Of a stretch of DNA of 64,000 bases, positions 51,167 through 64,000 are shown piece by piece. The notes under the pieces are model-generated. The model saw nothing but the letters and a program-made list of their open reading frames with translations, searched no databases and was not told the origin of the DNA. Position 1 is the stretch's first letter. Each line of letters begins with the position of its first letter. Origin of the DNA: Gemmatimonadota bacterium. Its GTDB lineage: Bacteria > Gemmatimonadota > Gemmatimonadetes > Palauibacterales > Palauibacteraceae. The position numbers and the translations under genes were made by a program. Location of the stretch: assembly GCA_039588275.1 (NCBI GenBank), contig JBDHAC010000003.1, positions 1 to 64,000 on the forward strand, written 5' to 3'.

Positions 51167-51718
51167 GTGATCCGCGTCTCGCGCGTCGTCAGCCTGGTAC
51201 GCAACCGGCGCCCCGTACACCGATTCGCCGATCGGCCGGTTCCCGCCGATGTGCTGGAGACGGTACTCGAGTCCGGGCGTTACGCTCCCTCCGCGGGTGA
51301 GGCGCAGCCGTGGCGATTCGTCGTCGTTCAGGAGGCGCTGACGCGCCTTCGAATCGCGACCGCGGCCTTCAACCATCCCCACTTGCAGACGGCTCCCGTC
51401 CTCATCGCCTGCTGCGCGCGCATTCACTCCCACGTCAGCGGGTCCGGCCGCCCAAGTCACCCGATCGATCTGGCGGCCGCGACCCAGACCATGTTGATCG
51501 TGGCCGCAGACCTCGGCCTGCACACGAGTTGGATCACAGGCTATCGCGAGCCTCACGTCCGGGCGGCCCTCGGGATCCCCGCCGATGTGCCCGTCGTGGC
51601 CATCCTGGCGCTCGGATACCCGGACGGTCTGAGCCCGTTGCCTGAGCGGCGTTCCCGTCCGGAGGTGATCGCCTGGGATCGCTGGCAATCGGATGACGCG
51701 GGGGGATCGCCGCTGTGA
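51167..51718 (+). CDS. Nitroreductase family protein
   Basis: Motifs RR....F, APS....QPW.F, GL.T.W and LGYP. Confidence 0.9.
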   Translation: MIRVSRVVSLVRNRRPVHRFADRPVPADVLETVLESGRYAPSAGEAQPWRFVVVQEALTRLRIATAAFNHPHLQTAPVLIACCARIHSHVSGSGRPSHPIDLAAATQTMLIVAADLGLHTSWITGYREPHVRAALGIPADVPVVAILALGYPDGLSPLPERRSRPEVIAWDRWQSDDAGGSPL

Positions 51719-53247
51719 GGCGGTTCGGCAGGCTCGCGCGGCCGGCGGCCCTCCTTTGTCTGTTTGTCGGACCGCTGGCGGCGCAGGAAGTGCGGCTCTC
51801 CGATGAACCACGCGGGGCCGCCCAGGAGGCGCTCGCCGCGTTCCTCGCCCGTGGCGGATACGAAGTGTGGACGAGTGACACCATCCTGGCGCGTGGGGAC
51901 ACCGTCGAAGGGCACGTGCTCCTCCTGGAAGGTGCGGGCCGGATCGCGGGCCGCGTGGAGGGGGACGTCTATGTCGTGGATGGCGACCTGATCCTACGCG
52001 TCGGGGGCAGCATCGGAGGGGATGTCGTCGTCTTGGCCGGACTCCTGCTGGACTCTGATCTGGCAACAGTGGAAGGAGCGATCACTTACCGGCCAAACGA
52101 GCGCTTGCGGGTCATCCCGGAAGCCGGCGGTTACACGATCTTTGCGGTCCAGCGGCCGCTCCCCGCGGTCGAGCTCGACGGCCAGTACGGGTTTCATCTT
52201 CCCACGTACCAGCGCGTCGATGCGCTTACCTTCGCGTGGGGTGCAACGGTGCGCGCCGCTCATGCGGCAGGCCAGCCGGAGCTCGGCGGGGTGGTTCGGT
52301 ACAAGACCGGACCCGATGACGTGGAAGGCTCCGTGCGTGCCGCATGGAACGCGAGCGAACGAGTCCGCCTGTTCGCTGCGGCGAGCCGCGCCACTCGCTC
52401 GAACGACGAGTGGATCCGGCCGACGTGGGTGAACACGCTGATGTTCGCGTTCGCGGGTGATGATTACCGCGACTACTACCGGGCCGATCGGGCAGGCGCC
52501 GGGGTCGAGTGGGGGATTCGTCGCGCGCCTGATTGGCGTGGCGGGACCGATGTGACGCTGACGGTCGGGGCCGCGTGGGAGGAAGCCCGCAGCGTCGAGG
52601 CTCGCGACGTCACGATACTGTTCGCGGCCGACGACGCGCGCTTCAATCCAGCGATCGATCCCGGTGACATCTACAGCGCCTGGGTTGGGTTGGCGGTCGA
52701 GGACCGCCGCGAGGATTCTCGAACGCGGCTGGGTCTCACGCTCGAAGGTTCGACCGAGGACATCGGCGGCGACTTCTCTTTTCTGCGAGCGGAGGCGCGC
52801 CTCGCGCTCAAGCGGCCGATCCTCTCGACCCATTCGTTGGATGTGTTCGCCATCGGTCGCGGCGATCTCGCGGGGACCTTGCCGGGCCAGCGGTGGTCCG
52901 GACTGGGCCGGATCGGAACGCTGCCTACTTTTCCGGTTCTCTCCCTGCGCGGTGAGCGGCTGCTGTACGGCGAGGCCACCTACGCGCTACCGCTCTACTC
53001 GGCAGGTACGCTTGGGGCGCTGGAGGCCTTCCTCCGGGGGAGCGCCGGCACCGCATGGAGTGAGGGCGAGAGTTTCCGCCTGAGGGAGAACGCGACGCTG
53101 GGGCTCCGTGCACGCGTTTGGGGCGTGGGGTTGGAGGTGGGCGTCGCGTCCGGGTTCGGCGGAGATAACGACGAATCGGATGTCCAGGTATACGTGGACC
53201 TGCGGCTCGACCGCCCGACCGGGGGACGTGGTCTGCCACTCTTTTGA
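51715..53247 (+). CDS. Secreted hypothetical protein: bactofilin-like repeat region plus probable beta-barrel
   Basis: Signal peptide ending LAA/Q; GxV.GdV repeats; alternating aromatic/hydrophobic strands. Confidence 0.7.
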   Translation: MRRFGRLARPAALLCLFVGPLAAQEVRLSDEPRGAAQEALAAFLARGGYEVWTSDTILARGDTVEGHVLLLEGAGRIAGRVEGDVYVVDGDLILRVGGSIGGDVVVLAGLLLDSDLATVEGAITYRPNERLRVIPEAGGYTIFAVQRPLPAVELDGQYGFHLPTYQRVDALTFAWGATVRAAHAAGQPELGGVVRYKTGPDDVEGSVRAAWNASERVRLFAAASRATRSNDEWIRPTWVNTLMFAFAGDDYRDYYRADRAGAGVEWGIRRAPDWRGGTDVTLTVGAAWEEARSVEARDVTILFAADDARFNPAIDPGDIYSAWVGLAVEDRREDSRTRLGLTLEGSTEDIGGDFSFLRAEARLALKRPILSTHSLDVFAIGRGDLAGTLPGQRWSGLGRIGTLPTFPVLSLRGERLLYGEATYALPLYSAGTLGALEAFLRGSAGTAWSEGESFRLRENATLGLRARVWGVGLEVGVASGFGGDNDESDVQVYVDLRLDRPTGGRGLPLF

Positions 53248-56670: not shown

Positions 56671-57231
56671 ATGACGATCCCGGCGGAGGTCGCACGAGCG
56701 ATCCGACTCGTCGTGTTGGACGCGGATGGCGTGCTCACGGACGGGGGGATTTATGTGGACGGGGGCGCCGGCGCGCGCGAGCTGCGGCGCTTCCACGCCC
56801 TGGACGGCCTGGGAATCCGCATGCTCGCGGAAGCGGGGCTCACGGTCGCGATCGTCTCCGGCAAGCGTTCGGAGGCCGTGACGCGGCGGGCGACCGAGCT
56901 TGGCATCGTCGAGGTGCATCAGGGGGCGCCGTTCGGAAAGGTCGCGGCCGTCGAGGGTATCCTGTCGAGGCACGGATGGTCCTGGTCGGCCGTGGCGCAC
57001 CTCGGAGATGATCTGGCGGACGCCGCGCTCATGGAGCGAGTGCGGCTCCCCGCAGCCGTCTCCAACGCCGTGCCGGAAGTGAAAGCACGCGCCTCGTGGT
57101 GTGGGACTGTGCCCGGAGGGAGCGGGGCCGTGCGCGAATTCGTGGAGGCGCTGTTGCGCGCACGCGGAGAGTGGGAGGAGCTCGTGGAGGCGTATGTCGA
57201 GCGGAGTCGTGGAACAGCTGCGGGAGACTGA
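56671..57231 (+). CDS. kdsC: Kdo-8-phosphate phosphatase (HAD family)
   Basis: Motifs D.DGVLTDG, DG.GI, GDD..D and GG.GAVRE. Confidence 0.93.
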   Translation: MTIPAEVARAIRLVVLDADGVLTDGGIYVDGGAGARELRRFHALDGLGIRMLAEAGLTVAIVSGKRSEAVTRRATELGIVEVHQGAPFGKVAAVEGILSRHGWSWSAVAHLGDDLADAALMERVRLPAAVSNAVPEVKARASWCGTVPGGSGAVREFVEALLRARGEWEELVEAYVERSRGTAAGD

Positions 57232-58207
57232 GACGGTTCGGCACGACGCCGAGCTTCTGGCGCTCGCCCGCAACGTCGTGCGGATCGAGTCCGAAGGCGT
57301 CGCCTCGCTGATCGAGCGGCTGGATGAGCGGTTTATCGAGGCGGTGCGGCTGATTCTCGGGGCGACCGGGCGCGTCGTGGTGACCGGGGTGGGCAAGTCT
57401 GGCCTCGTGGCGCGCAAGATCGCCTCGACGCTCGCTTCTACAGGTACTCCCGCGCTCTTTCTGCACCCGGTCGAGGGCGCGCACGGCGACGTGGGTGTGC
57501 TGCTGCGCGGTGACGTCCTGGTCATCGTTTCGCGAAGCGGGACCTCCGAGGAGCTCATCGCCCTGTTGCCTTCGGTACGTCGACTCGAGATCCCCATCGT
57601 AGCGATCACGGGCGTCTCGCAATCGCCCCTGGGTCGCGCGGCGAAGGCGGTCCTCGACGTCGGAGTGTCTGAAGAGGCATGCCCGCATGATCTGACTCCC
57701 ACCTCGAGCAGTACAGCCGCGCTCGTGATGGGCGATGCCGTCGCGATGGCCCTGTTGCACAGCCGTGGGTTCGAGGCCGAGGACTTCGCCCGGCTGCACC
57801 CGGGCGGGGTACTCGGGCGGCGACTTCTTTGGCGCGTGGAGGACGTGATGCTGTCGGGGGACGAGGTCCCGGTGGTTGGACCCGACGTCCCGCTCGCGGA
57901 GGCGATGCACGAGATCGCACACCGTCGCGGAACCGTGCCTGTCGTGGACGCCGACCGTAGGGTGGTCGGCGTGATGACCGCCGGTGATCTGACGCGCTTC
58001 GCGGAGGAGCACGCGGACTTCCTGACCCGCCCCGCCGCAGAGGCGATGAACGCGGACCCCAAGGTGGTGGGGCCGACAGCGCTGGCTATGGAAGCACTGG
58101 GTCGAATGGAGGAGCATGGCGTGATGGCGATGCCGGTCGTCGACGCGACGCACAGGCTCGTGGGCATCGTACACCTGCACGACGTGCTACGCGCGGGGGT
58201 GCGTTGA
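57194..58207 (+). CDS. kdsD: Arabinose-5-phosphate isomerase (SIS plus CBS domains)
   Basis: Motifs G.GKSG, STGTP, HGD.G, EACP, PT.S and HPGG.LG; CBS pair. Confidence 0.95.
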   Translation: MSSGVVEQLRETETVRHDAELLALARNVVRIESEGVASLIERLDERFIEAVRLILGATGRVVVTGVGKSGLVARKIASTLASTGTPALFLHPVEGAHGDVGVLLRGDVLVIVSRSGTSEELIALLPSVRRLEIPIVAITGVSQSPLGRAAKAVLDVGVSEEACPHDLTPTSSSTAALVMGDAVAMALLHSRGFEAEDFARLHPGGVLGRRLLWRVEDVMLSGDEVPVVGPDVPLAEAMHEIAHRRGTVPVVDADRRVVGVMTAGDLTRFAEEHADFLTRPAAEAMNADPKVVGPTALAMEALGRMEEHGVMAMPVVDATHRLVGIVHLHDVLRAGVR

Positions 58208-59127
58208 GTATCCTCGGGCGCGTCACGGCGACCCGGATTCGGGAACGCGTCGCGACCGGTCTGGTACTGGGCGGCCTGACCGGGAGCGCCGGGTGCGCCC
58301 CGGATGAAGCGACGCCCACCGCCGGGCCCGAGGTCCTGCGCGAGGGCGTCGACATGGTGATCGTGGACATGGATCACTACCTGTCGCGGCTCGGTATCCG
58401 ACGTGCGCGCCTGCTGGCCGACACGGCCGAGTACGTCAGTGAGAACGAGATCCACCTCAAGCCCGTCGAACTCGTCTTCTTCGACGACGAGGGCCGCGAG
58501 ATCTCGGTCTTGATCGCGGACTACGGCGTGTTCGACGAGGTATCCGAGGACATGGAAGCGAACGGCAATGTCGTGGTTCTGGATCGGCGGGACGACCGGA
58601 AGCTCGAGACCGAGCAGATTCGCTACACCAAGGAGGAAGATCGCCTGTACGGCGACAGCCCCTTCGTGATGGAGAGCAACGGAGGGCGTACCATCCACCA
58701 GGGAGACTCGTTCGAGGCGGATCCGGGGCTCGACGACGTCATCATGTGGGGCCCGGGCGGGCGTTCGGAGCCTCGCATCGACACGCTGACGGTGGAACCG
58801 TTGGATTCGGGCGCGGACGCGACGCCGGATTCGCTGCTCGAAGTGGACCCGGATTCTCCGGCTGCGGAGGCGCCGGACTCTCTGGCTGCGGAGGCGCCGG
58901 ACTCTCTGGCAGCAGAGACGCCGGATTCTCTGGCTGCCCGAGATTCTACGTCCGCGGACTCGACCGCGACCGCTCGGGACACGGCAGCCCGCGACACCAC
59001 CTCTCGGGACACGACCACCGTCGCACCGGACTCCACGGCGAGGGACATGGCGGGCCGCGACACCACCGCCCACCGCTCGACGACCTCGGTAAGACGCCGG
59101 GAGCAAGCCGGCCGCGACGCCGGCTGA
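58204..59127 (+). CDS. lptC: LPS export protein LptC with repetitive C-terminal tail (start uncertain)
   Basis: Position between the kds genes and lptA/lptB; hydrophobic N-region with Cys; motifs L.AD.G, GNVVV and L.TE; low-complexity tail. Confidence 0.75.
   Translation: MSILGRVTATRIRERVATGLVLGGLTGSAGCAPDEATPTAGPEVLREGVDMVIVDMDHYLSRLGIRRARLLADTAEYVSENEIHLKPVELVFFDDEGREISVLIADYGVFDEVSEDMEANGNVVVLDRRDDRKLETEQIRYTKEEDRLYGDSPFVMESNGGRTIHQGDSFEADPGLDDVIMWGPGGRSEPRIDTLTVEPLDSGADATPDSLLEVDPDSPAAEAPDSLAAEAPDSLAAETPDSLAARDSTSADSTATARDTAARDTTSRDTTTVAPDSTARDMAGRDTTAHRSTTSVRRREQAGRDAG
58825..58944 (+). repeat. Five 24-nt tandem units encoding PDSxxxxx in lptC
   Basis: ccgga(t/c)tc recurs every 24 nt at 58825, 58849, 58873, 58897 and 58921. 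Confidence 0.9.
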
Positions 59128-59135
59128 GATGCGCG

Positions 59136-61328
59136 ATGCCGGCGCTTGAATCCGCGACGCTAACGGTCCGCGCACGAGCCACGGCCGCATGTGGCGGATT
59201 TGCGCTCGCGGCGCTGCTCATCCCCACTTCGCTCGCGGGGCAAGGCACGCAGCGTGGTAGCTGCACCCTGATCTGGGAACCGACCACCGCGGACACGCGC
59301 AGCGTCAGCACCCGCGAGGGGCAGGACGCGTACGTGACGCATGTGAGCGGCGGGATGCTGTGGACGTGCGGTACGGCCACGATGCGCGCGGACAGCGCAG
59401 TCAAGTACGACCTGGCCCGCCGCGTGGACCTGATCGGGAACGTGCGCTATCGGGATACGATCCGCACCCTGGAGTCGGTATACCTCACCTATTTCGAGCT
59501 CGATGACCGAGTCATCGCTACCGACAGCGTCCACTTGACGCGGCTTGTCGACGGCTCGACGCTGACGGGGCCCCGAGTGGAGTTTCTGCGGGCGGTGACG
59601 GGCGTGGATGAAGAGACGATCGCGACCGGCCGGCCCCACATGGTGCTTTACCCGGAAGGAGATGACCCTGGCCCGCCGTTCGACGTCGACGCGGACCGGG
59701 CCATCTTCGCCGGGGAGGAAGAGGCGCGCGCGTTCGGGGATGTGATCATCACCCGACCTGACCTTCGCGCCGAGGCTGACTCCACCACCTTTCGCATCCC
59801 CGAGGGGACGGGGGTCTTGTACGGATCCCCTCGGGTGGAAGCCGAGACTATCACTCTGCGCGGCGACACCATCCGGACCGGCTTCGAGGACAACGTGTTG
59901 CGGGACGTGCATGCGCTCGGCCGAGCGCATGCGCAGGGCGAGTCGTTCGAGGTCCGGTCGGAGCGCATCGACGTCGCGGTAGAGGACGACGAGGTGGAGG
60001 CAGTGTGGGCCCACGGTGCGGGCATGGCGGAAGCCATATCCGGGGACCAGCACCTGTACGGCGATTCGCTGCGCTTCGCGATGTTCGAGGGTCGGCTCGA
60101 CACCATCAACGCGGTCGGCCGAACTGCGGCTGTCCAGGGCACCGGGCCGGCTCGCTTCGAATTGGAGACGGCGACCGTTCCCGAGACCGAGTCGGGCGAT
60201 GAGGCTGCCGTCCCGCCCGCCGCGGACTCGATCGGCGTCGCGGAGCCGGTGGCCGAAGACTCGGTGCGCGCCCCGGACCCGGTCGTGGAGGATTCGGTCC
60301 GCCTGCCGGAGCCGATGGCCGAAGACTCGATCGGCGTCGTAGAGCCGGTGGCCGAAGACTCGGTGCGCGCCCCGGAGCCGGTCGTGGAGGATTCGGTCCG
60401 CACACCGGTCCAGCAACCCTTCGAGGCGGCCGAGGCGGTTCCGCTGGAGGAGGACCCGGGCGAAGGTGCCACACCCACCGTGGCCCGCGGCGTGGCCGAC
60501 GAGAGCGTGGCAGGCGAGGCGAATGCCGACACGACCTCCCGGGCGGAGCCCGACCGATCCGACGAGGTATCGAGGTTGCGTCTGCCCACCGAAGAGGACT
60601 CCAATTGGGTGAGCGGAGATACCCTGTACGCGATCTTCGAGCGCACCCCGCGAGCGGCCGGGCCGAGTCCGCCGGAGAGCACGCGGGCAGCCCCGATTCT
60701 CCCGGACAGCGCAGGGGCAGCCCGGATTCTCCCGGACAGCGTCATCGCCATCCCGGTTCCGACCGACAGCGCGGTCGCCGTGCCGGCCGAGCCGGACTCC
60801 ACGGCCGACCCCGTCTTGGAGCGACTCACGGTTATCGGTCACGCGCGCTCCCTGTACGCGCAGGTCCGTGACACGGCCGCAGCCAATCGACCCTCCCGCA
60901 ATTACATGATCGGATCGCGGATAGACATCTTCTTCCGCGACGGGGAGCCTGAACGGGTGGAAGGTACGGACGCCATCGGTCTATACCTGGAGCCGCTCGA
61001 GACGCCGGAGAGCCAGGCCCCCGAGACCGGCGCGGTCCCGGCGCCGCAAGACACGACGGGCACCGGCGCCCGCGAAGACACGACGAGTGTCCGTGTTCGC
61101 GAAGACACGACCCAGGTCTCGCAACCACCGGACTCGAGCGGAGGTGTGCCGACGCGTCCTCGGGAGAGCGGTGCGCGCTCCACCGCGAGCGTGACGAACT
61201 CGGCCGCTCGAGACGGCCGTCGGGATCCACCCGCGAGAGATTCGGTGCAGGGCAAGAGGTCTGGAACCGCTGCATCCCGAGCGTCTCGCATGCGGTCGGG
61301 GCCACCACTGTCGAGGATCTTTCCATGA
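59136..61328 (+). CDS. Large LptA/OstA-like periplasmic protein with repeat insertions
   Basis: Signal peptide; repeated beta-jellyroll-like segments (ADSA, GNV, GDV, GDSL); lies between lptC and lptB. Confidence 0.75.
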   Translation: MPALESATLTVRARATAACGGFALAALLIPTSLAGQGTQRGSCTLIWEPTTADTRSVSTREGQDAYVTHVSGGMLWTCGTATMRADSAVKYDLARRVDLIGNVRYRDTIRTLESVYLTYFELDDRVIATDSVHLTRLVDGSTLTGPRVEFLRAVTGVDEETIATGRPHMVLYPEGDDPGPPFDVDADRAIFAGEEEARAFGDVIITRPDLRAEADSTTFRIPEGTGVLYGSPRVEAETITLRGDTIRTGFEDNVLRDVHALGRAHAQGESFEVRSERIDVAVEDDEVEAVWAHGAGMAEAISGDQHLYGDSLRFAMFEGRLDTINAVGRTAAVQGTGPARFELETATVPETESGDEAAVPPAADSIGVAEPVAEDSVRAPDPVVEDSVRLPEPMAEDSIGVVEPVAEDSVRAPEPVVEDSVRTPVQQPFEAAEAVPLEEDPGEGATPTVARGVADESVAGEANADTTSRAEPDRSDEVSRLRLPTEEDSNWVSGDTLYAIFERTPRAAGPSPPESTRAAPILPDSAGAARILPDSVIAIPVPTDSAVAVPAEPDSTADPVLERLTVIGHARSLYAQVRDTAAANRPSRNYMIGSRIDIFFRDGEPERVEGTDAIGLYLEPLETPESQAPETGAVPAPQDTTGTGAREDTTSVRVREDTTQVSQPPDSSGGVPTRPRESGARSTASVTNSAARDGRRDPPARDSVQGKRSGTAASRASRMRSGPPLSRIFP
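60225..60407 (+). repeat. Six 33-nt units (DS[IV]..., last partial) arranged as a duplicated 99-nt block
   Basis: DSIGVAEPVAE / DSVRAPDPVVE / DSVRLPEPMAE followed by a near-copy. Confidence 0.9.
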
Positions 61329-62143
61329 CCGATTCGGGCTCGACCGCGCAGGATCGCACGCACGAGACGTCGGCCCAGGCCATGGACCCGGAGCCGCTGG
61401 CGCGCGAGGTCAACGCCTCGCCGAGCACGCTGCGCGCCGATGGACTCGTGAAGTCTTTCAAGCGACGGCGGGTCGTGGATGAGGTCGATTTGAGCCTGGT
61501 GCAGGGAGAGATCGTCGGGCTGCTCGGACCCAACGGGGCAGGGAAGACGACGACGTTCTATATGATGGTCGGACTCCTCAAAGCCGATCAAGGCCGCGTG
61601 TATCTGGACGACCAGGAGCTCACCACGTGGCCGATGTACAAGAGAGCGCGGGCCGGGATCGGCTATCTGCCCCAGGAACCCTCCGTGTTCCTGAAGCTGA
61701 GCGTGGAGGACAACGTGATGGCGATTCTGGAGACGCTTCCGCTGTCTCGCGAAGAGCGTCATGCGAGACTCGAGAGCCTCCTCGATGAACTGTCGATCAA
61801 GCACCTGCGGAAGAACAAGGCCTATTCACTGTCCGGGGGCGAGCGCCGGCGGCTGGAAATCACCAGGGCGCTGGTGACGCGACCCAAGTTCCTGTTACTC
61901 GATGAGCCCTTCACGGGAGTCGACCCGATCGCGATCGACGACATTCAACGCATAGTGCAAGGACTCCGGAACAAGGGTCTGGGGGTGCTCGTCACCGACC
62001 ACAACGTGCGCGAGACTTTGTCCATAACCGACCGCGCGTATCTCCTGTTCAACGGCGAAATCCTCGTCGAAGGACCGGCTGATCGGCTCGTGAAAGACCC
62101 CGAGGCGCGCGCACTCTACCTGGGACAAGACTTCCGGCTTTAG
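61325..62143 (+). CDS. lptB: LPS export ABC ATPase
   Basis: Motifs GPNGAGKTTTFY, YLPQE.S.F, LSGGERRR.EI, LDEPF and TDHNVRETL. Confidence 0.97.
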   Translation: MTDSGSTAQDRTHETSAQAMDPEPLAREVNASPSTLRADGLVKSFKRRRVVDEVDLSLVQGEIVGLLGPNGAGKTTTFYMMVGLLKADQGRVYLDDQELTTWPMYKRARAGIGYLPQEPSVFLKLSVEDNVMAILETLPLSREERHARLESLLDELSIKHLRKNKAYSLSGGERRRLEITRALVTRPKFLLLDEPFTGVDPIAIDDIQRIVQGLRNKGLGVLVTDHNVRETLSITDRAYLLFNGEILVEGPADRLVKDPEARALYLGQDFRL

Positions 62144-62158
62144 GGCGCGTCAGCGGGG

Positions 62159-62187
62159 GTGCCATCCATCCCAGCACCGTGTATCTT
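62159..62187 (+). promoter_or_regulatory. Putative sigma70-type promoter for rpoN (GTGCCA-N17-TATCTT)
   Basis: 17-nt spaced hexamers in the lptB-rpoN gap. Confidence 0.45.
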
Positions 62188-62193
62188 TAGCTT

Positions 62194-62209
62194 CTGGTAC
62201 GATTCTTGT
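62194..62209 (+). promoter_or_regulatory. Sigma54-like site CTGGTACG-ATTC-TTGT upstream of rpoN
   Basis: Matches YTGGYACG-N4-TTGC except for the final C. Confidence 0.55.
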
Positions 62210-62288
62210 GACACATGGGTGTGGGGATGAACGTGCGGAAGCCAGCCTGCCCGAAGGCCCTATCCAGGGGTGAGCAAGGAGGAACGAG

Positions 62289-63758
62289 GTGAGCGGAATG
62301 CGACCCGGCCTCCACACGGGCCTTCGAATGAAACAAGAGTTGAAGGTGAATCCTCGCCTGTATCAGGCGATGGACCTTCTCTATATGCCCCTCCTCGATC
62401 TTCAACAGCACCTCAAGCAAGAGCTCGTCAACAACCCGTTCCTCGACCTCGTCGAGCCGGGCGAGGACGAGTTGAAGGAAGAAGCCGAGGAAAAGGAAGA
62501 CCCCGAAGAGGAGGAAGTCGATTGGGAGGAGATCCTGCTCAACGGCTTCGATGCGGGGGGACGGCGCGCGGAGTACGAGGAGAAGGAGTACTTCCGACCC
62601 ACCCCGGCCGCGACGCGGGATCTGTGGGACCACCTGTTCGATCAGCTCACGTTGATGAAGCTGGTTCCGCGCGAGGTGCTGATCGGCGAGGAGATCATCG
62701 GCAACATCGACCGGGAAGGCTTTCTGACCTGTTCGCTGGGGCAGATCGTAGAGTCGGTGAACAACTATCTCGCGGACCCGGAAAACCCGCTCGTCCGTGA
62801 GGCGGAGGAGGCCGAAGAGGAGATCAATCTCGAGTCGGTCACCACGGAGGAAGTGGAGCGGATGCTCGGCATGATACAGGGCTTCGATCCCAGCGGGATC
62901 GCGGCTCGCGATCTGCGCGAGACGTTGCTCTTGCAGCTCCGAGACCGAGGCGAGGAGGACACGCTGGCGTTCCGGATCGTCCGCGATCACTTCGACGAGT
63001 TGGTGAATCATCGTTGGAGCGAGCTCTCGAAGGAGCACGGCATCTCGCCGCAGGAAGTCCAGAGCGCTGCGGATGAGATTTCGAAGTTGGACCCGAAGCC
63101 GGGGCTCAAGTACTCGGACCTGTCCGACGCCTACGTGATTCCCGATCTCGTCGTCGAGAAGATCGACGGCCAGTATTACGTCTTCCACAACGACACCTCG
63201 CTGCCTCGCCTCAAGCTCTCGCGCTCCTATCGCGAGGTCGCGCAGGACCGAGGCAAGTTCCAGGGCGAGAACAAGACCTTCATCTCGAAGAAGCTCAACA
63301 GCGCCCAGTGGATGATCCAGGCGATCGAGCAGCGCCGGCAGACCATGCTGAAAGTGATGAACTTCATCGTCGACCGGCAGCGGGACTTCTTCGAGAAGGG
63401 CGTCGAGCACCTGCGCCCGCTCACTCTCCGCGAGGTCGCCGAGCACATCGACATGCATGAGTCGACGGTGTCGCGGGTCACGAACGAGAAGTACGTGCAG
63501 ACACCTCGTGGCGTATTCCCACTCAAGTTCTTCTTCTCGAGCGGGCTGTCCACCGACTACGGGGAGGATGTGTCGGCCCGCGGCGTGCGGGCGCAGATCA
63601 AGAAGCTCGTGGGAGAGGAGGATTCCACGAGCCCGCTCACGGACCAGGCCATCGTCGACATCCTGAAACGAGACGGCGTACAGATCGCGCGCCGAACGGT
63701 GGCAAAATACCGCGACCAGCTCGGGATCCTCTCCGCTCGCATGCGCAAGCGCGTATGA
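62289..63758 (+). CDS. rpoN: RNA polymerase sigma-54 factor
   Basis: Motifs NPFL, PLTLREVA..I.MHESTVSR and K...TPRG; RpoN box ARRTVAKYR. Confidence 0.98.
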   Translation: MSGMRPGLHTGLRMKQELKVNPRLYQAMDLLYMPLLDLQQHLKQELVNNPFLDLVEPGEDELKEEAEEKEDPEEEEVDWEEILLNGFDAGGRRAEYEEKEYFRPTPAATRDLWDHLFDQLTLMKLVPREVLIGEEIIGNIDREGFLTCSLGQIVESVNNYLADPENPLVREAEEAEEEINLESVTTEEVERMLGMIQGFDPSGIAARDLRETLLLQLRDRGEEDTLAFRIVRDHFDELVNHRWSELSKEHGISPQEVQSAADEISKLDPKPGLKYSDLSDAYVIPDLVVEKIDGQYYVFHNDTSLPRLKLSRSYREVAQDRGKFQGENKTFISKKLNSAQWMIQAIEQRRQTMLKVMNFIVDRQRDFFEKGVEHLRPLTLREVAEHIDMHESTVSRVTNEKYVQTPRGVFPLKFFFSSGLSTDYGEDVSARGVRAQIKKLVGEEDSTSPLTDQAIVDILKRDGVQIARRTVAKYRDQLGILSARMRKRV

Positions 63759-64000
63759 CCGAAGCGGCCGCGGACGAACGATCCGTACCAGCGGCTCCCC
63801 CTTCCCACCCGGTCTCGGCTCCAGATGTCTCGCGCTCCGAGACCCCGCCTGCGAAGGCACCGCAGGTGACCGCGGCCTCCTCGCCGGCCCCCAGGGTCTC
63901 GATCGTGATCCCGGCGTTCAACGAAGCCGAGAACATGCCCGAGCTCTTCGACGAGCTCGCCGGAACCATCCGTGAGCACGACCTTCACGCCGAGATCATC
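63755..64000 (+). CDS. Glycosyltransferase family 2 (3' truncated by the window edge)
   Basis: ATGA overlap with the rpoN stop; translates to ...VSIVIPAFNEAENM..L...EII. Confidence 0.85.
   Translation, partial: MTEAAADERSVPAAPPSHPVSAPDVSRSETPPAKAPQVTAASSPAPRVSIVIPAFNEAENMPELFDELAGTIREHDLHAEII

Follow-up and report, generated by a model that had tools for sequence, protein, structure and literature searches.

A conserved D-(S/T)-X motif array in the tail of a Gemmatimonadota LptC, a putative target of Bacteroidota-type O-glycosylation

The window, a stretch of 64,000 nucleotides that opens one contig of a Gemmatimonadota genome (4.1 Mb, 66.7% GC, 86% complete; G000 in the coordinates below), carries a gene run that we take to be kdsB-like, pyrG, kdsA-like, kdsC-like, kdsD-like, lptC, lptA-like, lptB-like and rpoN. 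The lptC gene lies directly upstream of the lptA-like and lptB-like genes. Its product matched PF06835 (E 1.7e-6) and TIGR04409 (E 5.5e-11), both above cut-off, and on these curated-cut-off domain matches the gene is identified as lptC. The domain match and a kdsD-lptC-lptA-lptB-rpoN-type gene order are common to this locus and to the known Lpt LPS bridge, and a beta-jellyroll fold can be inferred from the family match. Given the S-A-G-C31 N-terminus and a lipobox-like motif ahead of the domain in 46 of 48 homologues, LptC is predicted to be a periplasmic lipoprotein, with a lipid anchor at Cys31; our localisation heuristic put this LptC itself in the class 'unclear'. The lipoprotein type is thus almost universal in Gemmatimonadota LptC, whereas E. 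coli LptC has a transmembrane helix. P. intermedia LptC is likewise listed as a lipoprotein in the available part of PMC10897501. What sets the present LptC apart from known LptC of the Lpt bridge is a C-terminal tail of 115 residues. A scan of positions 57000-64000 returned no promoter and no terminator. Upstream of the Kdo genes, positions 51715-53247 encode an exported protein of 510 residues with a weak N-terminal bactofilin/polymer-forming match (E 0.002) and a barrel-like C-terminal half. The sequence-only reading had judged the host to be Gemmatimonadota-like and probably not a member of the Bacteroidota, which is borne out: the nearest Atlas clusters of two proteins are mostly Gemmatimonadota, and the best 6 of 120 named PF11028 fragments all belong to Gemmatimonadota records.

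Table 1. Features of the lptC locus and of one candidate transferase gene elsewhere in the genome.
Feature	Position	Strand	Description
lptC	58204..59127	+	307 aa; ORF, PF06835, TIGR04409; signal/lipobox, LptC domain and 115-aa motif tail
Predicted lipoprotein signal	58204..58296	+	Ends S-A-G-C31; from sequence
LptC domain (aa 40-172)	58321..58719	+	TIGR04409; one motif inside, DTA at aa 73 (58420)
Motif tail	58780..59124	+	Low-complexity, A/D/T/S/R/P-rich; 12 D-(S/T)-(A/I/L/V/M/T); predicted disordered
24-nt tandem unit x3.7	58849..58937	+	TRF, 89%; encodes (P-D-S-L-A-A-E-A)-like repeats
Degenerate 15-21-nt units	58942..59067	+	R/A/P-D-(S/T)-(T/A) motifs, 7 of the 12; no TRF array
lptA-like (OstA-like)	59136..61328	+	730 aa; 24 motifs vs 3.8 expected; most loaded protein of the genome
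lptB-like ABC ATPase	61325..62143	+	PF00005; matches annotated lptB
Start of GT2 gene	63905..64000	+	Opens a glycosylation gene run extending past the window
PF11028 (TMEM260-like, formerly DUF2723) gene	G000:C14:37656-39941		

The tail had been read as holding 12 D-(S/T)-(A/I/L/V/M/T) motifs, and a full listing gave exactly this number: DTL at 58780; DSL at 58828, 58876, 58900 and 58924; DST at 58942, 58957 and 59029; DTA at 58978; and DTT at 58993, 59008 and 59059. Two further D[ST] pairs (DSG at 58804, DSP at 58852) fall outside the strict set, Ser or Thr follows 14 of the 18 tail Asp residues, and Thr is used in 5 of the 12 motifs. Shuffling of the tail with its composition preserved produced a mean of 2.2 motifs (sd 1.3, maximum 10), none of 100,000 shuffles reaching 12, and the other two forward frames of the region contained no motif. 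LptC as a whole has 13 motifs where 2.5 are expected. Bulky hydrophobic residues make up 10% of the tail against 35% of the domain, and from composition and a simple propensity scale the tail is predicted to be disordered. The motifs had been ascribed to tandem units of 24 nt and about 15 nt. TRF recovered the longer unit, but the shorter array was absent from its output for the tail and is visible only as motif spacings of 15, 21, 15, 15, 21 and 30 nt. DNA slippage of the 24-nt unit supplies part of the motif count, which counts against the glycosylation reading; 24 residues of the region 58849-58937 are missing from both same-genus orthologues. The tail is not an assembly artefact, because two same-genus genomes carry an orthologous tail of 93 residues. 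One DNA sequencing run yielded two identical contigs, covering 58337-58642 and 58663-58905, but as it may be the source sample it lends no independent support; no RNA run was listed for this sequence among the sequencing runs searched.

We then compared 48 distinct LptC proteins (30 of the 42 matches of one search came with loci). The tail is a family-restricted add-on that the LPS bridge in general lacks: a tail of at least 40 residues was present in 8 of the 48, all within the host's family (8/21, five genera), with none in the sister family (0/9) or the rest of the phylum (0/18). Since 40 of the 48 homologues do without it, the tail is not needed for LPS transport as such. The seven other tails together hold 47 motifs against 7.3 expected, and in the five from other genera Ser or Thr follows Asp at 31 of 46 positions and Glu at 6 of 23. 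Across all eight tails (69 motifs) the +2 residue is most often T (27), A (15) or L (13). In a tree of 30 LptC domains the tails formed two groups, each with its own support, and two single branches of unresolved position, a pattern compatible both with one origin followed by losses and with several gains.

Repeat slippage in GC-rich DNA might have produced such a tail as a by-product, or it might be the relic of a disused system, in either case with no present function, as the 89% identity of the 24-nt units, the many homologues without a tail and the lack of bulk motif enrichment in the genome (see below) would suggest. The comparison with one same-genus orthologue argues otherwise. At aligned motifs, Asp was identical at 11 of 11 positions and Ser/Thr at 11 of 11, against 36 of 60 other positions. 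The 22 D/S/T codons of this pair showed seven silent and no replacement changes, whereas the 71 other tail codons showed 24 silent and 25 replacement changes (Fisher p 6e-4). As the D/S/T codons change only silently while their neighbours drift, the constraint acts on the protein and not on the DNA; by this codon evidence the tail motif is under protein-level selection. In addition, the motif is kept by dissimilar tails in five genera, and the candidate transferase genes described below are open frames without stops. We therefore regard a functionless tail as quite improbable.

The distribution of the motif was examined over the whole genome. Our own caller gave 3459 genes, among which proteins of at least 100 residues were classed as exported (761), membrane (726), unclear (378) or cytoplasmic (1340); both the calls and the localisation are our heuristics and not Prodigal or SignalP output, and the control samples amounted to 0.2-0.8 Mb per genome. 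The strong enrichment in exported proteins anticipated by the sequence-only reading failed to appear: observed over expected counts were 844/868 (0.97) in exported and 1066/1144 (0.93) in cytoplasmic proteins, a ratio of 1.04 (95% CI 0.95-1.14). This bulk test was negative with both versions of the classifier, and samples of the genomes G058 (0.72) and G127 (0.93) lacked bulk enrichment too. The positive controls gave 1.33 (Prevotella F0039) and 1.02 (P. nigrescens), the negative controls 1.02 and 0.71. The test is weak, because P. nigrescens, a Prevotella control, also gives just 1.02. DT-X in exported proteins was even under expectation (0.79).

Clumping of the motif separated the compartments. 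Overdispersion of D[ST]X was 1.90 (1.67-2.14) in 760 exported proteins, LptA being left out, vs 0.97 in 1340 cytoplasmic ones. No other of the 19 Z[ST]X motifs scored above 1.19, and the 18 D-b-X motifs were led by DSX and DTX. Comparable values came from Prevotella (1.74; two samples, n=120) and three other Gemmatimonadota (2.04, n=143), and the alphaproteobacterial control, Shinella and Azospirillum, gave 0.79 (n=115) with no loaded protein. The control motifs E[ST]X and [ST]DX stayed at 0.8-1.1, and E[ST]X, N[ST]X and [ST]DX showed no clumping. Loaded proteins (p<0.01) numbered 18 of 585 scorable exported proteins vs 3.0 expected, and 2 of 909 cytoplasmic ones vs 4.4 expected. Predicted disordered segments of exported and membrane proteins had an observed/expected ratio of 1.45 (1.32 without LptC and LptA), those of cytoplasmic proteins 0.82. 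The data support a clustering of the motif that is limited to exported and membrane proteins and, within membrane proteins, to their periplasmic side. Bulk motif counts can miss such a system, and clumping is the better genomic test.

Other partitions of the proteome were less informative. An excess in the first 40 residues (1.41) was not discriminating, as a small negative set gave likewise 13/9 (1.38). Tat-like exported proteins (0.87, n=22) did not differ from other exported proteins (0.98). As regards a bias against outer-membrane barrels and surface proteins, 13 large exported proteins ending in F or W had an observed/expected ratio of 0.61. Among 337 dipeptides ranked by depletion in 115 large exported proteins, DS came 44th and DT 17th, hence neither was outstanding. 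Nor was avoidance specific to the motif, as proteins with zero counts were likewise in excess for the control [ST]DX (z +3.0 vs +4.2). No protein of the genome matched the SusC-like motif class.

The two most loaded proteins of the genome were the LptA-like protein, followed by LptC. The lptA-like gene contains a 33-nt repeat at 60225-60408, with 33-nt and 30-nt repeat insertions. Its product had no Pfam match at E 0.01, and its Atlas neighbours carry PF13100/PF03968. Orthologues of about 340-630 residues are all loaded: LptA-like proteins had 6-28 motifs vs 0.7-3.5 expected in 20 of 20 loci of the phylum. A Prevotella OstA-like protein had 9 motifs vs 1.3 expected, and the Shinella and Azospirillum LptA-like proteins had 0 and 2. 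Other loaded proteins are presumably of the YidC, LptF/G, MlaD and FtsB types, to judge from their sequences. In nine single-pass membrane kinases, 42 motifs vs 14.2 expected lay after the span and 12 vs 8.9 before it; the kinases are paralogues, four of which carry most of the signal, the other five having 1-3 motifs after the span. Among these membrane Ser/Thr kinases, whose range is 1-13 motifs, G000:C26:32290-35400, C13:36035-38971 and C98:708-3638 have 7-13, found only after the span. The FtsB-like protein (120 residues, G000:C8:28957-29319) has three DSL exactly seven residues apart (51, 58, 65), a spacing that places them along the same side of a predicted coiled coil. The loaded set (LptA-like, LptC, YidC, LptF/G-like) fits, as far as sequence can tell, glycoproteins proven in Prevotella and Porphyromonas. 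In P. intermedia the available part of PMC10897501 gives an OstA-like protein as the most glycosylated (10 sites), with one site (DTA) in LptC and two N-terminal sites in YidC. According to the accessible text of PMC8729774, the glycoproteins of P. gingivalis lie mainly in the inner membrane and the periplasm, LptF being one of them, and outer-membrane barrels are spared.

Could the motif serve a structural or binding role without any modification, as helix N-caps, as turns of the beta-jellyroll, or as an acidic, hydroxyl-rich tail that binds cations or LPS? Motifs of the folded domains do lie in conserved columns, which may reflect constraints of the fold: the column of the domain DTA holds a motif in 40 of 48 LptC homologues, and columns of the LptA-like proteins in up to 18 of 20. 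PDSLAAEA also resembles a capped short helix. The same tripeptide, however, is favoured in settings as different as disordered tails, jellyrolls, the 7-residue periodic segment of the FtsB-like protein and kinase ectodomains, a preference that cytoplasmic proteins do not share. Neither E[ST]X, N[ST]X nor [ST]DX clumps, and alphaproteobacterial LptA and LptC of the same fold family have only 0-2 motifs. We hold an unmodified role to be improbable.

A closer competitor accepts that a periplasmic enzyme reads the motif and supposes another modification, either by a different sugar system (e.g. PglL-like) or with a non-sugar group. Our statistics speak to selection on the motif and not to chemistry, and the genome has one Wzy_C protein and several GT-C genes. 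PglL-type systems (Neisseria, Burkholderia, Acinetobacter) target disordered, Ala/Pro-rich periplasmic linkers, to which the tail is alike; its first half is rich in Ala, Pro and Glu with Ser, as is the substrate context of PglL in the available part of PMC12645811. That same part, however, describes PglL as Ser-specific and without a fixed sequon. In the present tail the Asp at -1 and the use of Thr are conserved, and the +2 residue is constrained. The target set, moreover, agrees with Bacteroidota glycoproteomes. PF11846 (PglL Wzy_C_2) had no match in this genome, at 86% completeness, and none in the control genomes either. A different modification appears unlikely to us.

The initiating transferase of the Bacteroidota system has been missing for more than 15 years, according to the accessible parts of PMC10897501 and bioRxiv 10.64898/2026.07.27.740950. 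A first candidate in the present genome is its PF11028 gene. The family was found in 150 of 151 genomes of the phylum and, among 14 controls, in B. thetaiotaomicron alone; all five matches in a plasmid collection were Bacteroidota. A conserved motif of the protein recovered at least 120 loci, and the matches listed comprised 96 Bacteroidota in the wide sense, 12 Gemmatimonadota, 7 other FCB-type and 1 Sphaerochaetaceae; its Atlas clusters also take in Myxococcota and Thermodesulfobacteriota. The genome's protein matched human TMEM260 (PDB 9rql) at E 3.3e-16, its D41 aligning with the catalytic D52, which the available text of PMC10214176 reports to be required for O-mannosylation. The human enzyme targets IPT domains and not D-(S/T)-X, and in the literature searched no bacterial TMEM260 homologue has a tested activity. 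Two Bacteroidales records (L052, L054) have a polysaccharide deacetylase gene and queG after the DUF2723 gene.

A second candidate is YfhO. After rpoN, on the same strand, the run G000:C3:63905-72840 comprises genes for a GT2, a PMT_2-like GT-C, a GT4, an FkbM-like methyltransferase, YfhO, an LPG_synthase_TM-like protein and a second GT2. The YfhO-like gene is 9.5 kb downstream of lptC, and its product matched a Prevotella YfhO (E 4e-18, 23% identity) and had no PDB match. A YfhO-like gene was present in 41 of 41 genomes; compared by hand, 19 of 21 genomes of the same class had it no more than 12 kb from lptB, and none of 18 genomes of the other class had the two on one contig. A second YfhO-like gene (G000:C41:27763-30138) is an open frame of 855 residues. 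B. subtilis and L. lactis have members of the family too, and the substrates of GT-C homologues can be lipids or wall polymers. YfhO has been predicted in silico to be the Bacteroidota OTase, and P. gingivalis is described as lacking it, in the available part of bioRxiv 10.64898/2026.07.27.740950. P. gingivalis had been considered as a discriminator between the two enzymes and was dropped, since the supplement of PMC8729774 has entries for a DUF2723 protein (PGN_0192) as well as for a putative YfhO/PMT glycosyltransferase (PGN_1968). We favour the TMEM260-like (GT117) protein as the initiating enzyme and give it about an even chance: it has a relative with proven protein O-mannosyltransferase activity, and its distribution tracks the motif more closely. 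Linkage to the lpt locus is on the side of YfhO, which is a serious but less probable choice; a small share of our expectation goes to the PMT_2-like gene or another.

Taken together, the motif array is real and probably meaningful, and its glycosylation is putative. We consider, with a probability of roughly 0.7, that the LptC tail is a selected motif array that undergoes Bacteroidota-type O-glycosylation in the periplasm and forms a mucin-like glycan brush next to where LptC meets LptA. LptC would be exported and lipid-anchored through Cys31, and a GT2 enzyme would load a sugar onto polyprenyl phosphate. A membrane GT-C enzyme may then move the first sugar or glycan from the lipid-linked donor to the Ser or Thr that follows Asp, and up to 12 glycans would make a hydrophilic spacer of the disordered tail. 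Because LPS transport as such can do without the tail, an accessory role is likely, such as periplasm packing, protease shielding or spacing. The O-glycosylation system that had been proposed for a Gemmatimonadota-like host is in part upheld: a selected motif, extracytoplasmic clusters, a target set that matches proven glycoproteins of Prevotella and Porphyromonas and GT-C candidates speak for it, and the expected bulk enrichment is missing.

General O-glycosylation is described as conserved across Bacteroidota in the accessible text of PMC10897501 and bioRxiv 10.64898/2026.07.27.740950. The present system probably works in the same way, to judge from the shared D-(S/T)-(A/I/L/M/T/V) motif, the shared class of periplasm-facing targets (OstA-like/LptA, LptC, YidC, LptF), a clumped distribution as in the Prevotella controls, and the DUF2723/TMEM260-like and YfhO genes common to both. 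The putative system differs in belonging to another phylum and in the absence of bulk enrichment in this genome. The likeness also stops short of the tail: the one site of P. intermedia LptC is in the domain, at a position unlike that of the present DTA, and the available part of PMC10897501 shows no 12-motif tail. YfhO as the GT-C enzyme of Bacteroidota is itself a prediction. A wider proposal, that D-(S/T)-X O-glycosylation did not arise within Bacteroidota but is ancestral to the FCB group, in which NCBI places Gemmatimonadota, is initiated by a bacterial TMEM260 relative and was extended to LptC-LptA glycan brushes in one Gemmatimonadota family, is speculative and in our view rather doubtful. 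A Calditrichaceae LptA-like protein (L304, G189) had 8 motifs vs 1.0 expected. Zixibacteria (L306-L320, G186) gave an exported observed/expected ratio of 1.82, but the cytoplasmic value of 1.41 weakens this lead, and our profile found no LptA-like gene in 3 of 5 non-Gemmatimonadota FCB loci.

The literature searched, which left most subscription papers outside, yielded no report of glycosylated proteins in Gemmatimonadota and none of an LptC with a motif-rich tail. A glycosylation system of the Bacteroidota type is likely at work in a second phylum, as the motif statistics and target set suggest. If Gemmatimonadota share the system, its enzyme should belong to one of the few GT-C families that both phyla have, a restriction that points to the TMEM260-like and YfhO-like proteins, and the tail, with 12 sites in 115 residues, would serve as a natural reporter of compact size for the activity of either. 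If true, a heavily glycosylated extension of LptC would add a new element to the LPS bridge.
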